A stretch of 61,784 nucleotides of DNA, counting the filler, from Globobulimina sp. (lineage: Eukaryota), in the NCBI GenBank assembly GCA_003354225.1. It is 17 parts of 17 records of this genome, joined end to end, with 100 filler letters (N's around TTAATTAATTAA, not from the genome) between each part and the next. Parts side by side here need not be neighbours in the genome. Positions count along the whole stretch, not along the records: positions 10,931 to 14,472 come from PIVH01002546.1; 16 more parts are not named here. One strand, written 5' to 3'. Below the pieces are notes generated by a model. It searched no databases, was not told the origin of the DNA, and saw only the letters and a program-made list of their open reading frames with translations. Below are positions 1 to 46,935 of the stretch, piece by piece (positions within the stretch are counted from its first letter, which is position 1; each line of letters opens with the position of its first letter). The translations under genes and the position numbers were made by a program.

Positions 1-3000
1 AATCAAACACCTATAATAGTTCGGACAAAAGACGACATGGAGCACGCAATGGATGAACTTTCTGGTCAGAATTTTCATGAACAATTGGTCAATTATGCTT
101 CACCAAATTCGCGTTTCGTTTTCTTTCAACCGACTAACATAGAGATAGAAGTTGTTCCTTTGGAAGATCACCCACTTCGTGGAGATATATTACCTACCGA
201 TTTTCCAATTTCGTTGACAAGCCGAAGAGATGTGTACTGTTTTATCAGAAACAGCAATGGGAAAATTTTGCTTCATGACAATCTGTGTCTGTTTCGCTCC
301 TTGGCAGTTTTCTTATCGAAAAAAAGAGCAACAGATTGCGAAAAAGAAGCAATCAGAATGGCAAAAGAATTCTGTCATGAGCGAGGATTATCATTTGCAA
401 ACTTTCCTGGTATCACAATGGGTGAACTCGAACTAGTTGAAAACCATTTTGATGTTGGTATTAAGGTGTATGGTTGTGAAGATGCCGGAAATCGTAAATT
501 CCTATGCAAACTTCCCCAACTTGAAAAGAAAAATGGTGTTTGCCAATTGTTTAGGTTCAAAAACAAACATTTCTGTCTCATAAAACCAAACCATGAAGAC
601 AGTTTTCTTGGTGGGTTTCAATGTAAACAATGTCAAAAACATTTTCGCACAAATCGCGATTCTAATCTTCATGAAGCTAAATGTAAAGGTGGGTCGAGAA
701 TTGTTGTTAAAACTGGGAGGTATCTTCGACAAGATGTACTAGTTGACCAATTACAGCATAACGTTATGATTAAACAGAAGAGCGATGTGTTCCAACCATA
801 CTTTATTGTCTTTGATGCAGAGAGTTGCATGGAAAAACCGTGTAATGATGATCTGTTTTCGGCCAAGACTGTATACGATTATAAACACAAAGCGATTGTT
901 CTGTGTGCAGCTACTAACATTCCCGGTGAAGCGGCGAAAATTTTCATTAACAATGATGATCCTAATGAACCAGATCGTTATCTTAGAGAATTTTTGACTC
1001 AAGTAGAGAAATGGCGTGTGATGGCCCGAGACATAAACCTCGATCGGGTGCAATACATTCTCGATGAAATGGATAATCATATATCTGTACTTGAGAATAT
1101 TCCTGAACAGTATTATCGCATGAGACGAATGCAAATTCTACGAAAAAAGCTCTGCAAACACATGGAAACAATTAATTTGCTTAGTTTCAATGGTCGTTCC
1201 TATGACATTCCATTAATGAGAAACCATTTGCTACCTCTTATTCATCAGTTTGGAAATGGTTTAAAGTATATTGATGACGGGGAAGATAGTAATGATGATG
1301 AATTGGATGATGTAGAATCAGGTGAAATATTGTCCGGTAAAATGAAATCGGGAATCCATTTCCTGCTTAAAACAGGTGCCAGTCGCTATGATGCCATTCT
1401 TGCACATAATATTAGATTCCTCGATGTGTTGAATTATTTGGGTGGCCAAGCTGTAACTTTAAGATCATTCGTTTCCAACTTTGCAAAAGATCAAAAAGAC
1501 AAAGTGGACAAAGCTTGGTTTCCATATAAATTTCTAAAGAAAATAGAAAAAGCAGAAGACCTAAAACAGTTTGGCTTGCCAGAGATATCAGATTTTATTT
1601 CTGACATGGGAGATGGCAGCACATTGGGCAAAGATGAAACCGAAATAAAAGGAAATTACTTGGAATTTATAACACTGTGGCTTGAAACAGGGTGTTCAAA
1701 TTTGTATGATTGGTTGATGGAATATGTAAAGATTGATTGTCTTTGCATGATTCCTGCTGTTGAAACTCTGCAAAAACAATGGCAAGATAGAAACATTGAT
1801 CTGTTCAGTAATCATTGCACAATTCAATCAGCAAATGCACCTTACCTTCTATCGACTATGCCTCCAAATGTATATTTTACACTCCCTGATAAAGATACCA
1901 TGACAGTTCTGAGAGAAAAAGGTGTCATTGGGGGTTTGGCTGAAATCTTTACTCGTCACCAAGAAGCGGGTGTGACACCAGTACATCCAGGTTCGAATAC
2001 TCTGACACAATCGATTGAAAGTCTTGATTCCAACAGCCAATATTTGGCTGCGTTGGCATCAGAAATGCCTGTAGGACCATATCTAGTAAGAAAAGCTGAG
2101 GACAGTTTTTGGCCAAGGCTTCAGGGAGAAAGACGTGCAACAACCGCAATTCAATGGATCGATTATGAAGCACAAAAAATCAGTTACGGAATCCGTCATA
2201 CATTGAATGGTGGTGAACCAACATTTTTTCATGGCGTGCAGATGAGACCAGATGGTTACTGTCATGAGTTAGACATAATTTACGAGTATGATGGGTGCGA
2301 TACACATGGTTGCGATCGTTGTGATAAGAGCAACCTTGGGGAAGAGATAAGCCCAGTGACTGGGAAAACATACAATGAAATGCGCAAAAAGACCATGGCT
2401 CGAAATGAGATATGGCGATCTCACCATGCTCAACTTGTAATTATGCAAGAATGCCATTTTAAAGAACAGTTGAAAACAGATTACAAAATGAAACAGTTTG
2501 TTGAAAGTTGGTTGCTTGGCCCACAGAAATTTGGTTGTAACACAAAAAAACTGACAGAAGAATCCATGAAAAATAAATTGATTTATGGTGAGGTTTTTGG
2601 ATTTGCACTTGTTGATCTAGAAAGCGACCCATCACATCCAGACTATGAAAAATTTAAAATGTTCCCACCGATAATTCGACACTTAGAAATTAATAGAAAA
2701 ATGATACCCGAGGAGGTGTTACAAGTAGGGAAACAAAATGGTATAGATTTTGTGAAACCCAGAAAAAATTTGGTCGCATGCATGACAGGGAATCAAGTTT
2801 TGATGTACACTCCATTGCTGAAGTATCTCTGTGAAATTGGTGTCAAGTTGACTAAAGTTTATCAAGTAATTCAGTTTCAAGGACGTCATTTCCCATTCAG
2901 ATCATATGAAAAAATAGTAGCTGACATGCGTAGAGAAGGAGATCGGATGGGGAATACTGTGGTAACGAACTTGGCTAAGCATATGGGTGCTAGTGCTTGG

Positions 3001-3544
3001 GGAAAATTTGCATTCAATCCACAAAAACGTAATGAATATAAAATCTCTGATTTGGATGAATTCAAAAAGTTGGCAAATTGTCATACTTATATGAGCCACT
3101 TGGAGTTGGATGAAGGGTATACCGAGATTCAACTGAAACCAAGGACTGTTAAGTTTGATTTGCCAATTCAAATCGCTGTTGCAGTATATGGGGCTGCAAA
3201 ACTGAATTTATTGCGTTTTGTCCACAGTTACATTCTAAAATATTTCGATCATACAAAATTGGCAATATGTGGTTCAGACACGGATAGTGTTATTGTTAGC
3301 TGGGGAAGTGAGGATCCAGATTCGCTTGTCTTACCTCATTTGCGAGATGAATATGAAGAAAATAAATATGAATTTGTGGTAGATGAGCGTACTCCAGAAG
3401 CCGAAGCATATACCAAACGTCAACCGGGTTTATTCAAAGTGGAGAAACGAGCTAAAGGGTTTATTGGTCTGTCAGCAAAATGTTACATTATGGTAGATGA
3501 AGACGAAAACACTTTGAAACATGCGGCAAAAGGAGTGTCAGCCA
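1..3544 (+). CDS. Protein-primed family B DNA polymerase (Polinton/Maverick or Polinton-like virus type); partial at both ends
   Basis: Intronless frame, open from position 1 to the contig end. ExoI FDAES (811-825), ExoII SFNGRSYD, ExoIII YVKID, motif A LDSNSQY (2023-2043), motif B KHMGASAWGKF (2977-3009), motif C GSDTDS (3271-3288), then PGLFKVE and AKCY..KGV. N-terminal OTU-like DNLCLFRSL and a CxxC-H-C finger; VSR-like insert PDGY..YEYDGCDTHGC. Confidence 0.9.
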
Positions 3545-3644
3545 NNNNNNNNNNNNNNNNNNNNNNNNNNNNNNNNNNNNNNNNNNNNTTAATTAATTAA
3601 NNNNNNNNNNNNNNNNNNNNNNNNNNNNNNNNNNNNNNNNNNNN
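3545..3644. other. Artificial contig linker (44 N + TTAATTAATTAA + 44 N); 16 copies in the window
   Basis: The same 100-nt linker starts at 3545, 7188, 10831, 14473, 18114, 21755, 25396, 29036, 32676, 36316, 39956, 43595, 47234, 50872, 54510 and 58148. Its 12-mer has stops in all six frames. Contig lengths fall from 3544 to 3537. Confidence 0.98.
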
Positions 3645-10082: not shown

Positions 10083-10930
10083 AAAGATGTACTTTTTTGA
10101 GAGTTTTTTTTTGAACTCTGGTGTGTAAGGTTAACTTAAGTATCTCTCTTATGTGCAAGGATAACTTAGTTACAAAAACAAATACCATTTAAGGCATCAA
10201 ATTGTTCCAATGTGACTTGATTGAAAGTTTGTAATTGTATTGGTGATAGCTTTGATTGCTGCAACGCGAATTTGAGATTACCATATCTTCGAAGAAATGT
10301 TGCTTTGAATTTTGAGCGATAAATATGTGCAACCATCGATACAAGCGAGTATTGTGAGCCTGTCCAGTCCAAACAGTCTTACAATAATATATGTTTATTG
10401 TTTGTAACATATAGCATTAAAAAAAAAACATGGCTCTGGCATTTGCTCGTCCACGAACTGATATAATTAATGCGAATTCGTTTTTAACGACAAATAATTC
10501 GGAGACGCTTCCATGCCTGCGCTCTAAATAGATAACAGTGCCACTCTTTCCTGTATCCTCTGCTTCCTTGGCATCGGTTGTCATTACTACAGAGGTTTTT
10601 CGAGTTTTATAAAGTTTGACTAAGGTAACAAGCACTGTCCCTCACGTCTAGGCTCTAATAATATTATATATATATGATTAAATTTCAAGTGAAGTATCTC
10701 ACGGCTAGCCTCTACTAATATATATATATATATGATTAAAAAAAAAATACTAATATATATATTATTACTCTACTAATATATATATGAATCATTAAGTATC
10801 CTGTCTGAATATTCCGCTTAGTATGCTGACNNNNNNNNNNNNNNNNNNNNNNNNNNNNNNNNNNNNNNNNNNNNTTAATTAATTAANNNNNNNNNNNNNN
10901 NNNNNNNNNNNNNNNNNNNNNNNNNNNNNN

Positions 10931-11372: not shown

Positions 11373-12146
11373 TCACATTCCTGAATTAGCATCAAGATAC
11401 GCTTGAAAATATGTAACTAATTTTGTTTTAAAGTCATTTTTTAACAAACTTAATTTAAATGAATTATCCTTACCCTTTTTACCATAATTTACAATAAGCC
11501 ATATACTTAAATGTTGTACACATTCTTTAATTTCATTCTTATCAACATCAGGTTTTCCACTTTTATTTTGTTGTTTATGTTGAGATAATTTATAAAAAAT
11601 TACTAGTAACGATAAGAATTTCTCTATTTCTTCAGTCTCAATTTTCCCACTATTATTTGGATCAGATTTTGCCCAAATTTTATCCGTATTGCTCGAGGCA
11701 ATCATCTTTGTGATAAATTGCATGAATCCATTATTATCACTGCTTAATAATTGTAATGATTGTCGTCGTTTTTCTGCATTTCCTAATATGGATAATTGTG
11801 AGTCGGCTTTATTTTTATTTTTAAATATTCCACTGATAATTTCTTGCAATTCTTTGTTTTTTTTATTTGATTTATCTAACCACGATTCATATTGATTTAG
11901 TTGTAACTGAATTGTGTGATAATCGTCTTTAGATTCTTGCAATAATTCTGTTAATTCGTCATTTTCTGTTTTAGTTTTGTTATATAAATTATTTAATTCT
12001 CTATAATTTTCTTCCATTTCTTGTATTTTTTTATTTAATTCCTTGTTTTTTTTATTTAATTCATCGTTTTCATGTTGCAAACTATTGATATCTTTAATAT
12101 ACTCATTTGGTGCCTCTGTCATACAAAATCTAAAAACAGATGTCAT
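11373..12146 (-). CDS. Coiled-coil protein with an EF-hand-like loop
   Basis: Heptad-rich N-terminal half; DPNNSGKIETEE loop; start codon uncertain. Confidence 0.6.
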   Translation of the reverse strand: MTSVFRFCMTEAPNEYIKDINSLQHENDELNKKNKELNKKIQEMEENYRELNNLYNKTKTENDELTELLQESKDDYHTIQLQLNQYESWLDKSNKKNKELQEIISGIFKNKNKADSQLSILGNAEKRRQSLQLLSSDNNGFMQFITKMIASSNTDKIWAKSDPNNSGKIETEEIEKFLSLLVIFYKLSQHKQQNKSGKPDVDKNEIKECVQHLSIWLIVNYGKKGKDNSFKLSLLKNDFKTKLVTYFQAYLDANSGM

Positions 12147-12193
12147 TATTAACACAGCTAAGTAAAGTATTTTGTCAAGAAAATTGTACAGTT

Positions 12194-14005
12194 TTATGTT
12201 AATGTGTCATCTTCACCCAAATATGTTAATTGTTTAACTTGGATATGCTGAATCGGAGAATAGTTCGATTGATGGTATTTTAAAGTATACTCATTTACCA
12301 TATTTTGCTGTAATAATTTTTTATCATATTTTGCTTTAAAATATGCAAAAGCTTTAACTATTTTGTTCTTATTATTTCCACATTGTACATCAATTAGGAT
12401 TCTTTTATAATGTCCTTTCGCTCCAACCCCTTCATATTGATCTAAACCAAGCAATGTTTCATGATCTACTCTCCACATTTCACCCTTTATTTGCTTCATA
12501 TTTTCAATGTTGTTCATTTCATTTTTATTTATATCCAATAAATACGGCAAACCAGACTCGCCCATAACTAATGGATATTTATTTGATGTGACAGCTTTCC
12601 CATCAATTAATTCACCGCAGCGACTCAAATATTTCTGGTTCCAATGGTATCCACTTTTTAATGTACCATAAACAAATAATATATATTTATTTTTATTTCT
12701 TTCTACATATTCATGTTTAATCAATGGCGCAACAAAACGTTTGTATCTTCTTTTATATTTAAAGTTATTTTGATATATACAATAACCATAATATATTACT
12801 AACAATCCAATGAGACTATAAATTGTATAATCATTCAAATTTTGATATAATGAAAATGCGGATATTAAAGCAAACAACATTGCAACTACAAAATGAGTAT
12901 TATTATAAATACGATCTGCAATATCACTAAATATGACACAATGTGTCGAATATGCATTATTGTACCATTCATAATAAGTTACTGGATCTTTGGTTCTCCA
13001 GTATCTGTGATCCCAATTTGTCTCAATCAAATGCTCAATATTTGGATACCGTTCTTTTCTTATTCTGAATTCAATTTTATCTATACCCAAATCAGAGATA
13101 TTACCATCATTTTGCTTACATTTTGTGGCATGGCCATGCAATAAATCTTTGTCTTTCTCCCAATTAAACAAAGTGGCCCCCGTACACCGTCTGAAAGGAG
13201 AAAATTCAATCACTATAACCTCGTCTTTTGATTTTAAATATGCAAAATCTATCACATAACTTTGCTGTTTCAAGTATGGATGGACTGTTTTCCATTTATT
13301 ATACATCATTAATTTTAATTTATTTTTAATTTTAAATAAATATGGAAATACTCCGTAATGATCATACTGAGAGATGCATGTTATTTGATTGTTGTATATA
13401 AATACTCGGAATTCATAATCTTTGGTAACATCATCATTCCAGACACGAAATACAATTTGTTCCGGTTCGCCAAATAATATCCAATCACGTAAATCGATGC
13501 ATATTCTCTCCGATGACAGTAACTGAGCCATGGCTTCTTTGGCATTGTTTATTTTTAAATATTGCGTTTTCGAGATTGCAATCAATTTTGTATCAACATT
13601 TAGTTTATATCCACTCTCTAATAATTTATTTAATTCGTTTTTATATTTATTTTTGAGATTTTTTCTTCTATCCAATACATCGCAGTCTTTTGCGGATCGA
13701 CCACATAATCTCATAAAAGCGCCATATTTACAAAAATCATATTTTTTATGCTTTAATATTAATGATATTCTATGCTCCAAATTATTCAATATAGTTACAT
13801 CATATTTTGTAAATTGTTTCTTATTCCTTTGTAAATATCGAGCTTGGAAATAATGGACAATCGCTATTGCCTCACATCGTCGTAATGGAAGGAATACTGT
13901 TTTGAATGTAAATTGTGATATTATAGGATACCACACATCAGCATCAAATGGAAGATTTTCTTGTCTTAATTTGTGCTCGCTTGAAATTGCCAAAGTATTG
14001 GTCAT
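12194..14005 (-). CDS. CDC123/D123-like (R2K clade) ATP-grasp domain + 2 TM helices + gamma-glutamylcyclotransferase (AIG2/GGACT-like) domain
   Basis: R2K motifs FMRLCGRSAKD, SSERI..DL, EFRVFI, ISQYD, YVIDF and VIEFSPF. Two hydrophobic segments (~aa 372-412). GGCT motifs LFVYGTLK (12661-12680), IKGEMW and LDQYEG. One uninterrupted 603-aa ORF. Confidence 0.85.
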   Translation of the reverse strand: MTNTLAISSEHKLRQENLPFDADVWYPIISQFTFKTVFLPLRRCEAIAIVHYFQARYLQRNKKQFTKYDVTILNNLEHRISLILKHKKYDFCKYGAFMRLCGRSAKDCDVLDRRKNLKNKYKNELNKLLESGYKLNVDTKLIAISKTQYLKINNAKEAMAQLLSSERICIDLRDWILFGEPEQIVFRVWNDDVTKDYEFRVFIYNNQITCISQYDHYGVFPYLFKIKNKLKLMMYNKWKTVHPYLKQQSYVIDFAYLKSKDEVIVIEFSPFRRCTGATLFNWEKDKDLLHGHATKCKQNDGNISDLGIDKIEFRIRKERYPNIEHLIETNWDHRYWRTKDPVTYYEWYNNAYSTHCVIFSDIADRIYNNTHFVVAMLFALISAFSLYQNLNDYTIYSLIGLLVIYYGYCIYQNNFKYKRRYKRFVAPLIKHEYVERNKNKYILFVYGTLKSGYHWNQKYLSRCGELIDGKAVTSNKYPLVMGESGLPYLLDINKNEMNNIENMKQIKGEMWRVDHETLLGLDQYEGVGAKGHYKRILIDVQCGNNKNKIVKAFAYFKAKYDKKLLQQNMVNEYTLKYHQSNYSPIQHIQVKQLTYLGEDDTLT

Positions 14006-14281
14006 TATATAATTATCACTTGAGACGAGGTTTTTTCTCTTACAAAATACTGAAAATAGATTTTTTCGATATTAAAAGCAAAAATGCCTATAACCACTAC
14101 TGAAATATTAAATTTTTTTCGAAACGGAAATATTGAGACGAAGTATTTAGTGACATATTCTTATTTCGTACAAATACGGAAGAGCTAAAACAAAACAAAT
14201 AGTAAAAACAAAAAATAGCGAACAAATACATGATTTCAACAGGTATATAACAGATAAAAATAGTGTTTTTAATGTTTTTGT

Positions 14282-14472: not shown

Positions 14473-14572
14473 NNNNNNNNNNNNNNNNNNNNNNNNNNNN
14501 NNNNNNNNNNNNNNNNTTAATTAATTAANNNNNNNNNNNNNNNNNNNNNNNNNNNNNNNNNNNNNNNNNNNN

Positions 14573-32775: not shown

Positions 32776-33787
32776 AATCAGATTAAAATAATCGGGGAAA
32801 AAGAATCTAGATTCGCCACATTTTATCATCCATTTATTTAAATTGCTTACGCCTTGATCTAACGCAATAATTTGGATGATATCTTCATCGTATTTAACAC
32901 TTAAATCATAAACAAAATCTTCTCCTTTAACTTGCAAATCGACGAAGCTCTAAATAGTATCAATGCAAAAATATATAAATTAAGTACATATATATTAACT
33001 TAACCGGAACCAAATAACATGAATCTGTTAATTTTGACTTGCTCTCAACCACTTGATCCGATTGTATATCCTCTAAAATTCCTTTGCCTACGTTTTTAAT
33101 TAATTCTATGATAGGTGTCGGATCCATGACATTTCTCTCTAAAACACAACATAAATGTTTGGTTAATGTGCTGCCATCATAGTCAATTTGCGAAGTGGCA
33201 CCACGTGTGCATCCATGTAATATAATCTCGTTTTGCTTCCATTTCAAATCCAATTCTTTTGGGTGATAATCGCAATGTGGTTGCACATAATATTCCGTCC
33301 GGCACATATCTGCGATAAATAGCTTTGGATGTGCTGCTGCTTTGAATCCCACAACATTCGGATCTCTAAATTGGTCTGCAATATATTCTGTTGCCAAAAC
33401 ATTGTCATCTGATAATATGACATGTGAATATCCTGTCGGGGATGTGGCACCGTGCGACGATACGAAAATAATCAAACCATCCTTTGATTTATTTTGTTTG
33501 TATTCCTTCGTTGCCGTGGAAATCATATGAATCGCGCCATGATAGTTTAATGGTTTGTTTGGGTCATTAGCCATATCAATATTGTACCCATATTTTGCCA
33601 TACAGCGCTGAAATAAATCTAAATCTATGTATATATTGTTTAACGAGTTTTTTTTATCTTTATATTCACCAATCACAATAGTAATTATAAATGGATTTTG
33701 TATTATATTTCTTAAATATGTTATTTTATTGAATGTGCAATTGTTTAATAAATGAGAATTACTGCATTTGGGACATGCAATACTCAT
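32776..33787 (-). CDS. Caspase-like peptidase (C14 fold), 3'-partial; intron 32950-33004
   Basis: GLIIFVSSHG (catalytic His) and PKLFIADMCR (catalytic Cys); p10-like GSTLTKHL. N-terminal CxxC. Confidence 0.8.
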
Positions 33788-44770: not shown

Positions 44771-46935
44771 ATGAGCTTGCATAGTGACACTAACAATGAC
44801 ACCACACCCGATGGAGAGACTGAAGGATTCCAGCACTTGTCTCCACATATTGAACATTCAGCACTTGTCGCCACATTAATGTCATTGGGTATAGCATCGC
44901 AAAATGCATGTATCAGAGCAACCGCTGCTGTCAATAATAAAAGTGTCGAAGAAGCAGTTGAATGGCTATTCTCTCATTTGAACGATACAGATATAAATGA
45001 GTCCATTCAGCCAAATATTGAGTCATATTCATTAAAACAATGGTGTTTAGCGAATGGATTTTCAATTGATTTATGTCACCGACTACAACGTGCTCCACTT
45101 TATATTGATACATTGCAAAAATTACAATTTTTAACATCTGATGAGGATATTAACGATTTGGTGCAAGAATTAGGCTTACGATTTGGTAAAAAAGCTGCCT
45201 TTGTCCAAGCAATGCAAAAACTTAAAGTTAACTCACCGTATTTATTTATTACAGTGCAAGGATAGTGAATGTACTGTACATTACATTTTTACACAACAAG
45301 GAAAAGGATATATCACCGGAAGAACTATTAATGGACCAAATTCACACAGAAAGCAAGAAAAACCCTCCTGAACCTTGGCATTGTTCACTTTGCGAATATA
45401 CCAATATTGGTACAGATGAACTTTGTTTAATGTGCAGTTCCGCAAAACCTCCAAAAACTGCTCCAAAGTTATTGATATATATTATCTAATTTAAAAATAT
45501 CTTTTTTACAATTTCCCATTATATTTTTTTTGAAAGAAATACCAAATTAATGCAATCAGAAACGGCGATTGAAACAATTGTAAAACAAGAAAACAAGGAA
45601 ACGAAGCAAGATGAGGCTGCAATGAATGATTCCGCATTGCATTGTACCCGTTGCAGTCAGGGATTCCATAAAAACGACTGGAGTCAACATAACGTAATGT
45701 TGGATGCTAAGAATGGAATGGCTTATACGCATTTAATGTGTCCAACATTGGACAGCAACGTCAACATTTCGATGAATGCAACCACACCAAATCAATTTAT
45801 ATCTGATCATAAAACTCCTGATCGCAAAATGCAGCAACGAATTTATAAAAAACCAAACAACACAAAACCTAAACCCGTTCAGGAGAAGAAAGCAGCAAAA
45901 ACGGATAAAAAAGCAAACAAAACAAAATCTAAACTTGTGGAGGATAAGAAAGAAGCAAAAATTGATGATTCCAGATTGCGTTGCAATCGTTGCAAAGAAG
46001 AGTTAAGTGACAGAGACTGGAACAGACAGAATGTTGTCATGGATCAAGATGTATTTTATACACATTTAATGTGTCCAAAATTAAATAAAAAGAAAAAGAA
46101 AACAAAATTAAAAGCGAATCCAAAATCTATCCTTAAAGATATTAATAAAAAGTTTGTAGAGCATAAATCTTTTGGCGATATGACATTTGCGCCAAACCCT
46201 GATTTAACAAAGGATGAAATTGATGGTGAATGTCATATTCGTGATGGTATGATACCTTACAGAACTTTACAGAAATCTAATTTTTTGAAGTTGTATGATT
46301 CAACCAAAGCTGCTCCAAAGTATGACGATATAATTCATCATTTACCTGATGATTTGCTCGATGATTTCAAAGAGTGTTATCAGACAATTTGTGGTCAATA
46401 TACTGACCATATTGTTGGCAGAACCTGTGTTAAGGCCTGGACTCATGAAGAAAATGAATTTACTGCGTCTCGGTTTTATTGCAAATTGAATGCTGCGCTG
46501 TTATCTGACCATAGCGAGTTATTGAAAGAGTGGATGTTATTAATTCGCGGTTTGAATAAGTTTTTGGTGAATACGAGGCCAAAGGAAAAGATTGTTTGTT
46601 ATAGGAAATCTGATTTAAGTTTAGCTCAATTTAAGAGAATTGAAGTTGGTAAGAAATATAGAATAGCAATGTATACGGCGACATCAACGAATAAGGAGTT
46701 TGTGAAGCAATGGAATAGAAACAGTGGCACATTTTATTGGATATTTAATGTTCCAGCAAATTGCTATAATGCATGTTGTATTGCAGAATATTCGTATCAC
46801 GGGGAAGAGAGTGAAGTGTTAATGCCGCCATATTCTTCCATACAGATTGTGTCTAAAAAAGCTGATGGTTATATAACCGCAAACGTTTTGGATAATAAAA
46901 ATTGTTCAATGGATTTACCTACAATTGTTTCATAA
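44771..46935 (+). CDS. UBA - SAM - RanBP2/NZF finger - 2x C2HC repeat - R-S-E ADP-ribosyltransferase; introns 45227-45300 and 45468-45536
   Basis: UBA LVATLMSLGI..A..A..N.SVEEAVEWL; SAM LKQW..L.FG....F; WHCSLCEYTN....CLMC; two CxxC..DW...NV..THLMCP repeats; ART CYRK, YTATST, EESEVL. Both introns restore the frame. Confidence 0.8.

Follow-up and report, generated by a model that had tools for sequence, protein, structure and literature searches.

The fused gene and its product

The window analysed here is a stretch of 61,784 nucleotides from Globobulimina sp. (assembly GCA_003354225.1), made of 17 parts joined end to end with filler between them. On its minus strand lies a gene whose predicted product, a protein of 603 amino acids, combines an ATP-grasp domain of the CDC123/R2K type with a GGACT-type gamma-glutamylamine cyclotransferase domain, the two being separated by a helical linker (Table 1). 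The region of this open reading frame (ORF) has a GC content of 29%, and the base make-up of the strand itself gives a probability of about 1e-25 for 603 codons without a stop. A single ORF of this length carrying seven named motifs was what the sequence-only reading of this DNA had proposed, and both points hold: the ORF appears as such in the ORF listing, and all seven motifs are present (RSAKD at residue 103, SERI at 165, EFRVF at 198, SQY at 212, IEFSPF at 266, YGTL at 446 and LDQYEG at 521).

Table 1. Positions in the window of the fused gene, of the features of its product and of two other ORFs.
Feature	Position	Strand	Remarks
Whole gene	12194..14005	-	single-exon ORF, ATG start, 603 amino acids and stop
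CDC123/R2K-type ATP-grasp domain, residues ~20-345	12971..13948	-	Pfam D123, Foldseek matches to Cdc123
RLCGRSAKD, residues 99-107, with R99 and K106	13685..13711	-	basic pair by which the R2K clade is defined
D253	13247..13249	-	equivalent of human CDC123 D233, ATP-grasp active-site acidic residue; alignment to 8phd
IEFSPF, residues 266-271, with E267-x-S269	13193..13210	-	stands for canonical ExN (human D246xN248)
Helical hairpin linker, residues 354-419	12749..12946	-	AlphaFold2 helices 354-388 and 393-419
Basic stretch after helix 2, residues 414-433, net charge +6	12707..12766	-	taken as probable cytosolic flank
GGACT-type gamma-glutamylamine cyclotransferase domain, residues 440-583	12257..12688	-	Pfam, profile, Foldseek (template-modelling score 0.77)
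YGTL, residues 446-449	12659..12670	-	substrate-binding motif of the GGCT fold; kept in 56/66 complete GGACT domains
LDQYEG, residues 521-526, with E525	12428..12445	-	aligned to the GGACT catalytic Glu (human Glu82); kept in 56/66
C-terminal tail, residues 584-603, PIxHIQVKQxxYL	12197..12256	-	family-specific, beyond GGACT homology
260-residue ORF	11373-12155	-	coiled coil, sub-threshold EF-hand match; begins 39 bases beyond the fused gene's stop codon
1187-residue ORF	37-3600	+	organellar/viral type-B DNA polymerase family (DNA_pol_B_2); at the window edge

The identities proposed for the two domains were recovered by Pfam, by Foldseek and by a profile of the family. Pfam D123 matches residues 138-284 with 63.5 bits (cut-off 24), over only positions 101-254 of the 300 in the profile, and Pfam GGACT matches residues 443-566 with 56.3 bits (cut-off 22.8); the matches of the protein to Pfam R2K_2 and R2K_3 stayed below their cut-offs. 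AlphaFold2, given an alignment of 28 sequences, yields a model with a mean predicted local distance difference test score (pLDDT) of 84.2 and a predicted template-modelling score (pTM) of 0.83. With Foldseek, the N-terminal half of the protein finds human and S. pombe Cdc123 (8phv/8phd/4zgp, E 3e-11 to 3e-9), and the C-terminal half finds mouse and human GGACT (E 4e-9 to 2e-8, template-modelling scores 0.73-0.77, 25-27% identity; for 1vkb/3jub, E 4e-9 to 8e-9 and scores of 0.76-0.77). GGCT and ChaC are weaker matches of the C-terminal half than GGACT, and its other fold matches include the C-terminal domain of allophanate hydrolase and part 2 of the Paulinella transit peptide. NCBIfam and PADLOC have no family model for the fused protein or for a Legionella relative. 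A two-chain complex prediction with the ATP-grasp half and the GGACT half scored 0.13 against a mark of 0.34, and we counted it neither way.

Could the ORF be an artefact, two adjacent genes joined by mis-assembly or by read-through? Among the runs that hold this stretch no RNA run is on record, and three runs guessed to be RNA contain short pieces only, with 90-99% likeness, none of which bridges the domain junction. Against an artefact, however, stand the open frame across that junction and a contig from another study's sequencing run (X2), which covers 11900-14035 with 6 differences and no gaps and so spans the entire fused ORF. Complete two-domain ORFs also occur in independent transcriptome assemblies (labelled 'ORF type:complete'; for example P0010, P0015, P0019, P0029 and P0033), and 72 fused relatives were found. 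Two of the homologs can be named here: P0001, which is full-length with 62% identity (E 1e-244), and the two-domain protein PROFUN_07061 of Planoprotostelium fungivorum; both Pfam families, D123 and GGACT, are present in 46 of the 60 proteins listed for the full-length query. The claim that this is one gene and not a chimera therefore stands, and the artefact, to which we give virtually no chance, is effectively refuted already. As to the X2 contig itself, it starts about 30 bases upstream of the ATG of the fused gene, runs through the ORF and over the start of the downstream 260-residue ORF, and beyond 11900, the edge of the compared stretch, it joins an odd repeated piece.

The family, its conserved residues and the surroundings of the gene

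With the ATP-grasp half we searched 1.84 billion representatives and obtained 1779 relatives at E<=1e-3, of which 104 reach E<=1e-30. In a pooled set of 295 sequences (P0001-P0286, the query and 8 bacterial loci), local hidden Markov models found a complete ATP-grasp domain in 182, and in 72 of these a GGACT domain as well. A FastTree phylogeny of the 182 rows places all 72 fused proteins in one clade of 81 rows (Shimodaira-Hasegawa (SH)-like support 98). Of the nine unfused rows nested in this clade, most stop just behind the ATP-grasp domain; at the metal-binding motif discussed below, eight of the nine have ExS and one has ExG. We read these nine as truncated gene models. We also ran IQ-TREE (LG+C20 with posterior mean site frequencies, quick search) on 90 hand-picked rows, namely 40 fused, 22 of the Legionellales-containing group and 28 other unfused, leaving out the nine truncated rows, ten long-branch rows and the remainder for size. 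All 40 fused rows fall on one side of a branch with an SH approximate likelihood-ratio support of 100. The root was not inferred, and since the tree is unrooted a single origin of the fusion is the simplest reading rather than a proven one; the topology fits it. From these alignments and trees, the joining of ATP-grasp and GGACT domains is a real and conserved family, recurrent, old and present in many microbial eukaryotes. As far as tested it is eukaryotic: scans for the fused-family pattern gave 30 matches in viral contigs and 46 in prokaryote genomes, none of them confirmed, although this absence is weak evidence because the scans are pattern-based.

Residue conservation was compared in three groups, the 72 fused proteins, 23 proteins of the Legionellales group and 74 other unfused proteins, the last two making up 97 unfused sequences. 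The paper that defined the R2K clade gives as its hallmark a basic residue ending strand 2 of the RAGNYA fold and a second Lys or Arg in the loop just downstream (PMC4431377). In the AlphaFold2 model strand 96-100 closes with R99, and the loop after it contains K106; position 99 is Arg in 71/72 fused proteins and Arg or Lys in 97/97 unfused ones, and position 106 is Lys in 71/72 and 97/97, respectively. In the model this pair would fit the two-basic-residue definition, with Arg and not Lys as the first member. A residue-level alignment of the RSAKD region to sequences from the PDB (human K104) gave no Cdc123 match. The other human equivalents were placed by a phmmer alignment to chain 8phd_A (chain numbering +20). 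D253 is invariant in the 72 fused and 97 unfused sequences, and the invariant or near-invariant positions are R103, S104, K106, D107, S165, R167, R187, E198, R200, Q213, Y214, D253, E267, P270 and W282. The alignments show the predicted nucleotide- and Mg-binding residues R99, K106, D253 and E267 to be kept in the ATP-grasp half.

The canonical ExN motif (DxN in the human protein) is a different matter. The 603-residue protein keeps E267 and has Ser-269 in place of the Asn, and the fused clade shares this: 71/72 fused proteins carry Ser at position 269, where Asn stands in 23/23 proteins of the Legionellales group and in 74/74 other unfused ones. According to PMC4431377, the Asn of the R2K ExN is occasionally swapped for other polar residues. 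Ser-269 is, on this alignment, a signature of the fused clade. At position 215, similarly, 70/72 fused proteins carry Asp, as against Asn in 22/23 members of the Legionellales group; W331 and R334 hardly occur outside the fused proteins. In the sequences examined the change from ExN to ExS coincides with the fusion, and because W331 and R334 coincide with it too, the ATP-grasp site appears to have co-evolved with its GGACT partner.

The cyclotransferase half was expected to carry YGTL and a candidate catalytic Glu, and it does. In the alignment of the family profile to mouse GGACT (1vkb, E 1.3e-20), YGTL, the Glu of DxYE and the C-terminal YxP all align, and E525 falls opposite the Glu of mouse LDDFED. 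The hallmarks given for human GGACT in PMC7022552 are the catalytic Glu82 and a YG(S/T)L motif. The mouse alignment stops at YxP, before the tail of the protist protein, which forms a helix (584-595) in the model and is itself conserved (H587 in 64/66, K591 in 57/66 and Q592 in 61/66 complete domains).

Ten of the 66 complete GGACT domains have xS(V/L)L instead of YGTL, and Tyr or a gap instead of the catalytic Glu. These presumably dead domains (P0045, P0047, P0055, P0056, P0077, P0078, P0084, P0085, P0096 and P0212) form one subclade, which adjoins the query's own group. The ten proteins keep the ATP-grasp residues, including Ser-269, with P0056 deviating at 3 of the 20 tabulated positions. 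As 90% clusters, P0056 stands for 54 member sequences and P0047 for 29. In the Atlas, the whole protein finds one eukaryote cluster of 216 members, with D123 in 99% and GGACT in 13%, in which Rotifera is the commonest named phylum, the phylum being known for five members only; the GGACT half finds generic GGACT clusters only. This cluster nearest to the query, with its 13% of GGACT, may correspond to the subclade with dead cyclotransferases.

Between the two domains the sequence-only reading had seen two closely spaced transmembrane helices and had placed both domains on the same side of a membrane. The model contains a hairpin of two antiparallel helices (block-mean pLDDT 58-79), and the first hydrophobic segment (372-390) reaches a Kyte-Doolittle hydropathy of 1.78, above the usual mark of 1.6 for a transmembrane segment; the second (393-411), however, after the short loop NDYT, reaches only 1.37. 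The net charge is -1 before the first helix, -1 in the loop and +6 after the second helix. Under the positive-inside rule a basic flank marks the cytosolic side, and because of the +6 C flank both domains are likely cytosolic in this hairpin arrangement, which would suit an ATP-dependent domain. A common membrane side is thus plausible for the Globobulimina protein but is no general feature of the family, 40-43 of the 72 fused proteins having no hydrophobic segment in the linker. The linkers are 18-164 residues long; at a hydropathy of at least 1.5 they contain no hydrophobic segment in 43 proteins, one in 14, two in 15 and three in none, and at 1.2 or more the figures are 40, 10, 21 and 1, respectively. 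On the 40-row fused subtree the hairpin label changes 13 times, against a mean of 13.5 for shuffled labels. Because the hairpin is so scattered and mostly absent, membrane anchoring would be a labile, lineage-specific addition that lies outside the definition of the family, most members of which are predicted to be soluble.

As judged from its sequence, the window is eukaryotic nuclear DNA. Its domains include dynein heavy-chain exons, a Pol beta/lambda-like gene, RabGAP-TBC, Kelch, GYF, a caspase-like domain, a class-3 lipase, an ADP-ribosyltransferase (ART) and a Polinton-type PolB. The dynein exon shares 85-87% identity with three protist entries; among named organisms Plasmodiophora brassicae comes first with 60%, followed by an MMETSP entry under taxid 136419 (Cercozoa) with 59% and by chlorarachniophytes with about 50%. 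These matches point to a protist host, probably a rhizarian, and a rotifer origin was rejected on their account. Upstream of the fused gene lies a family-2 sulfotransferase, and we infer no function from this neighbour or from the 260-residue ORF on the other side. The DNA_pol_B_2 ORF at the window edge suggests a Polinton/Maverick-like or similar mobile element. The ORF at 45550-46935 (+) carries the NAD:arginine ADP-ribosyltransferase domain and the one at 32960-33787 (-) the caspase-family (Peptidase_C14) domain. Runs of 44 N letters, 32 in all, stand in 16 pairs at intervals of about 3.64 kb throughout the window (for example 10831-10874 with 10887-10930, and 14473-14516 with 14529-14572); none lies inside the fused gene, other ORFs are cut by them, and by their appearance they are deliberate masks rather than assembly gaps.

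Proposed joint chemistry of the two domains

What could such a pair of domains do? We tentatively favour the view that both act on the same gamma-glutamyl-amine bond, as a coupled ligase and cyclotransferase, a view we hold to be quite possible if somewhat short of an even chance. ATP-grasp enzymes form amide bonds by way of an acyl-phosphate, and GGACT-type enzymes need free alpha-amino and alpha-carboxyl groups on the glutamyl moiety. The domains would share one bond because GGACT cleaves the class of bond that an ATP-grasp amide ligase activating the gamma-carboxyl of Glu would make. In the proposed scheme the ATP-grasp domain would spend ATP on linking L-glutamate, through its gamma-carboxyl, to the amine of a protein lysine or to a small amine, and the GGACT domain would then split this gamma-glutamyl-amine bond, so that 5-oxoproline and the amine are released. 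Such a polypeptide would act either as a tag that resets itself, with writer and eraser on one chain, or as a device for a transient gamma-glutamyl 'protecting group', and the hairpin would tether it to the membrane with both domains in the cytosol. For the idea of a writer and eraser and its small-molecule variants taken together, we put the chances at about even.

Several observations favour a coupled pair. The putative catalytic residues are shown by the alignments to be kept, and the ATP-grasp core is invariant in the 72 fused and 97 unfused sequences. Moreover, the domains would fit a single unit, since the linkers can be as short as 18 residues and the pTM of the whole chain is 0.83. The confinement of the fusion to one clade, the ExS change that accompanies it, the retention of YGTL and E525 in 56/66 complete GGACT domains and the +6 flank after the second helix count on this side as well. 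A number of points weigh on the other side. We know of no member of the CDC123/R2K clade with demonstrated ligase activity. If one chain carried both ligase and lyase for a single bond, ATP would be spent in a futile cycle unless the two were regulated, and the change of the Mg-binding Asn of ExN to Ser could weaken or alter catalysis. The ten dead domains among 66 would argue against an obligatory eraser; indeed, since that subclade keeps its ATP-grasp residues, the ATP-grasp domain would need no active cyclotransferase. The second hydrophobic segment of the linker is weak for a membrane tether. Finally, gene context in the Legionellales gives no independent support: in the eight prokaryote loci examined (titled Legionella, Berkiella, Coxiellaceae and uncultured Gammaproteobacteria), no GGACT-like ORF lies within 6 kb of the standalone CDC123-like gene (0/8), and no conserved neighbour was seen among the 28 flanking ORFs scanned of 50.

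One rival takes the ATP-grasp domain for an ATPase chaperone or assembly factor without ligase activity, and the GGACT domain for an independent module, either for the breakdown of gamma-glutamylamines or for binding and scaffolding. The closest solved structures are indeed Cdc123 bound to domain III of eIF2gamma, and rat CDC123 is described as an ATP-binding ATPase that promotes the assembly of eIF2, the available part of that paper reporting no ligase activity and not containing the term 'ligase' (PMC12860950). The subclade in which intact ATP-grasp residues stand beside a cyclotransferase lacking its catalytic motifs speaks for the same view, as does the existence of non-catalytic domains of the GGCT fold (the allophanate hydrolase C-terminal domain and part 2 of the Paulinella transit peptide). 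However, the 603-residue protein is distant from classical CDC123, with a phmmer E value of 1e-8 over about 100 residues and a D123 match confined to profile positions 101-254. All the catalytic motifs of the cyclotransferase are kept in 56/66 complete domains, which argues that it is under selection as an enzyme, and the coincidence of the ExN to ExS change with the fusion is not easily accounted for by domains without a functional link. We regard this reading as somewhat unlikely.

In the other rival the pair works one way on small molecules and no protein is tagged: either the ATP-grasp domain would gamma-glutamylate a small amine, whose product would be converted or carried elsewhere before the GGACT domain took the glutamyl group off again, as a protecting group of the BtrJ/BtrG kind, or amines would be handled at the membrane in the manner of the gamma-glutamyl cycle, with 5-oxoproline as a by-product. 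GGACT-type enzymes do act on small substrates, L-gamma-glutamyl linked to alkylamines (PMC7022552), and btrJ and btrG belong to the butirosin side-chain gene set (PMC13707489). A membrane location is predicted in some lineages, including for the Globobulimina sp. protein. On the other hand, the pair is neither fused to a carrier protein, a transporter or an enzyme that modifies intermediates, nor was any of these seen as a conserved neighbour; in the window the neighbours are the coiled-coil/EF-hand protein and the sulfotransferase, although adjacency means little in eukaryotes. Most members of the family are predicted to be soluble, and the authors of the R2K study predicted protein or peptide substrates and peptide ligation for the clade (PMC4431377). 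We consider this one improbable.

A broader version of the coupled ligase and cyclotransferase can be formulated, in which the whole Legionellales/amoeboid branch of CDC123 proteins would consist of gamma-glutamyl-amine ligases acting on protein lysines or other amines, and the protist fusion would be a self-contained, membrane-tetherable switch of writer and eraser, a 'Rosetta stone' for the branch. As it stands we think this unlikely. If it were true, there would be a previously unrecognised reversible system of protein gamma-glutamylation in eukaryotes, with writer-reader versions where the cyclotransferase is dead, and it would predict the chemistry of the standalone bacterial relatives inside amoebae.

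The question of what, if anything, is ligated by CDC123/R2K ATP-grasp proteins dates from 2015, and the one member studied behaves as an ATPase chaperone. A conserved fusion, apparently of single origin, to an enzyme whose one known reaction is the cleavage of gamma-glutamyl-amine bonds points to a class of substrate, glutamate plus an amine, and the ligase hypothesis thereby becomes testable with simple assays. In this sense the fusion gives a first hint, from context, at what chemistry is carried out by an enigmatic branch of ATP-grasp proteins that also occurs in intracellular bacteria of amoebae. The ExN to ExS switch and the subclade with dead cyclotransferases offer natural mutants, and through the kinship with proteins of amoeba-dwelling intracellular bacteria the answer bears on the bacterial proteins too.

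Relation to known systems

The architecture had been put forward as undescribed, and this apparently stands: we found no publication that, to judge by its title, concerns a fusion of CDC123 or ATP-grasp with AIG2, or of D123 with a cyclotransferase. The main text of the R2K paper (PMC4431377) does not contain 'cyclotransferase' or 'transmembrane', although its Figure 2, on domain architectures, could still show the fusion, and the text of the one supplementary file covered contains no mention of AIG2, GGCT, cyclotransferase or Naegleria. In a search on Cdc123 together with Legionella, that paper was the only relevant one. Members of the family are annotated automatically in databases, for example as 'GGCT/AIG2-like uncharacterized protein YtfP'. 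The fusion is thus, apparently, an undescribed yet database-visible architecture built from known kinds of domain.

Nearest to the ATP-grasp half are the standalone proteins of Legionellales and amoeboid eukaryotes, with 30-36% identity over nearly the full length; those that can be named come from Legionella longbeachae ('cell division cycle protein 123 family protein'), L. impletisoli, Legionella metagenome-assembled genomes (MAGs) and one diatom. They belong to the fast-evolving 'second set' of the CDC123 family that Burroughs, Zhang and Aravind (2015, PMC4431377) describe from amoeboid eukaryotes, Legionella and giant viruses. These proteins share R99, RSPKD, SER, EFR, SQY, D253 and ExxPF with the fused family, and their group adjoins the fused clade in both the FastTree and the IQ-TREE phylogeny. 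They differ, however, in being 340-410 residues long without a GGACT domain, in keeping the canonical ExN, in having Asn and not Asp at position 215, and in lacking W331 and R334. Among their flanking ORFs in the Legionellales, ankyrin, F-box and pentapeptide proteins occur. Two MAGs of uncultured gammaproteobacteria have ankyrin-repeat proteins, one with an F-box-like domain, beside their standalone CDC123-like genes (L004:6708-7922 and L007:4072-5238), and neighbours of this type fit islands of effector genes that are eukaryote-like.

Classical CDC123 (8phd, 4zgp) has the same ATP-grasp fold, and EFR, ISQ.D, D233/D253 and the DxN/ExS positions are in common. Its similarity to the 603-residue protein is nevertheless local (phmmer E 1e-8, residues 183-284) and does not extend to full length, as the D123 match over 101-254 of 300 profile positions also indicates, and the Legionellales-type paralogs are nearer. 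It lacks a fusion partner, and the role given for it in PMC12860950 is that of an ATPase chaperone for the assembly of eIF2 alpha and gamma. As far as sequence allows one to judge, nothing in the 603-residue protein suggests binding of eIF2.

In butirosin synthesis, BtrJ, an ATP-grasp enzyme, adds a gamma-glutamyl group to an amine, and BtrG, which has the GGCT fold, later removes it as 5-oxoproline. These are separate bacterial proteins, whose substrates are aminoglycosides and intermediates bound to a carrier protein. The 603-residue protein has no such carrier fused to it, nor was one seen nearby, and BtrJ is not known to belong to the R2K clade. The likeness to the fusion is one of logic only.

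For the C-terminal half, the best match both by structure and by profile is mammalian GGACT/A2LD1 (1vkb, 3jub, 3juc). The mammalian enzyme is free-standing and of about 150 residues, whereas the protist domain is fused behind an ATP-grasp domain and extended by the additional tail HIQVKQxxYL.

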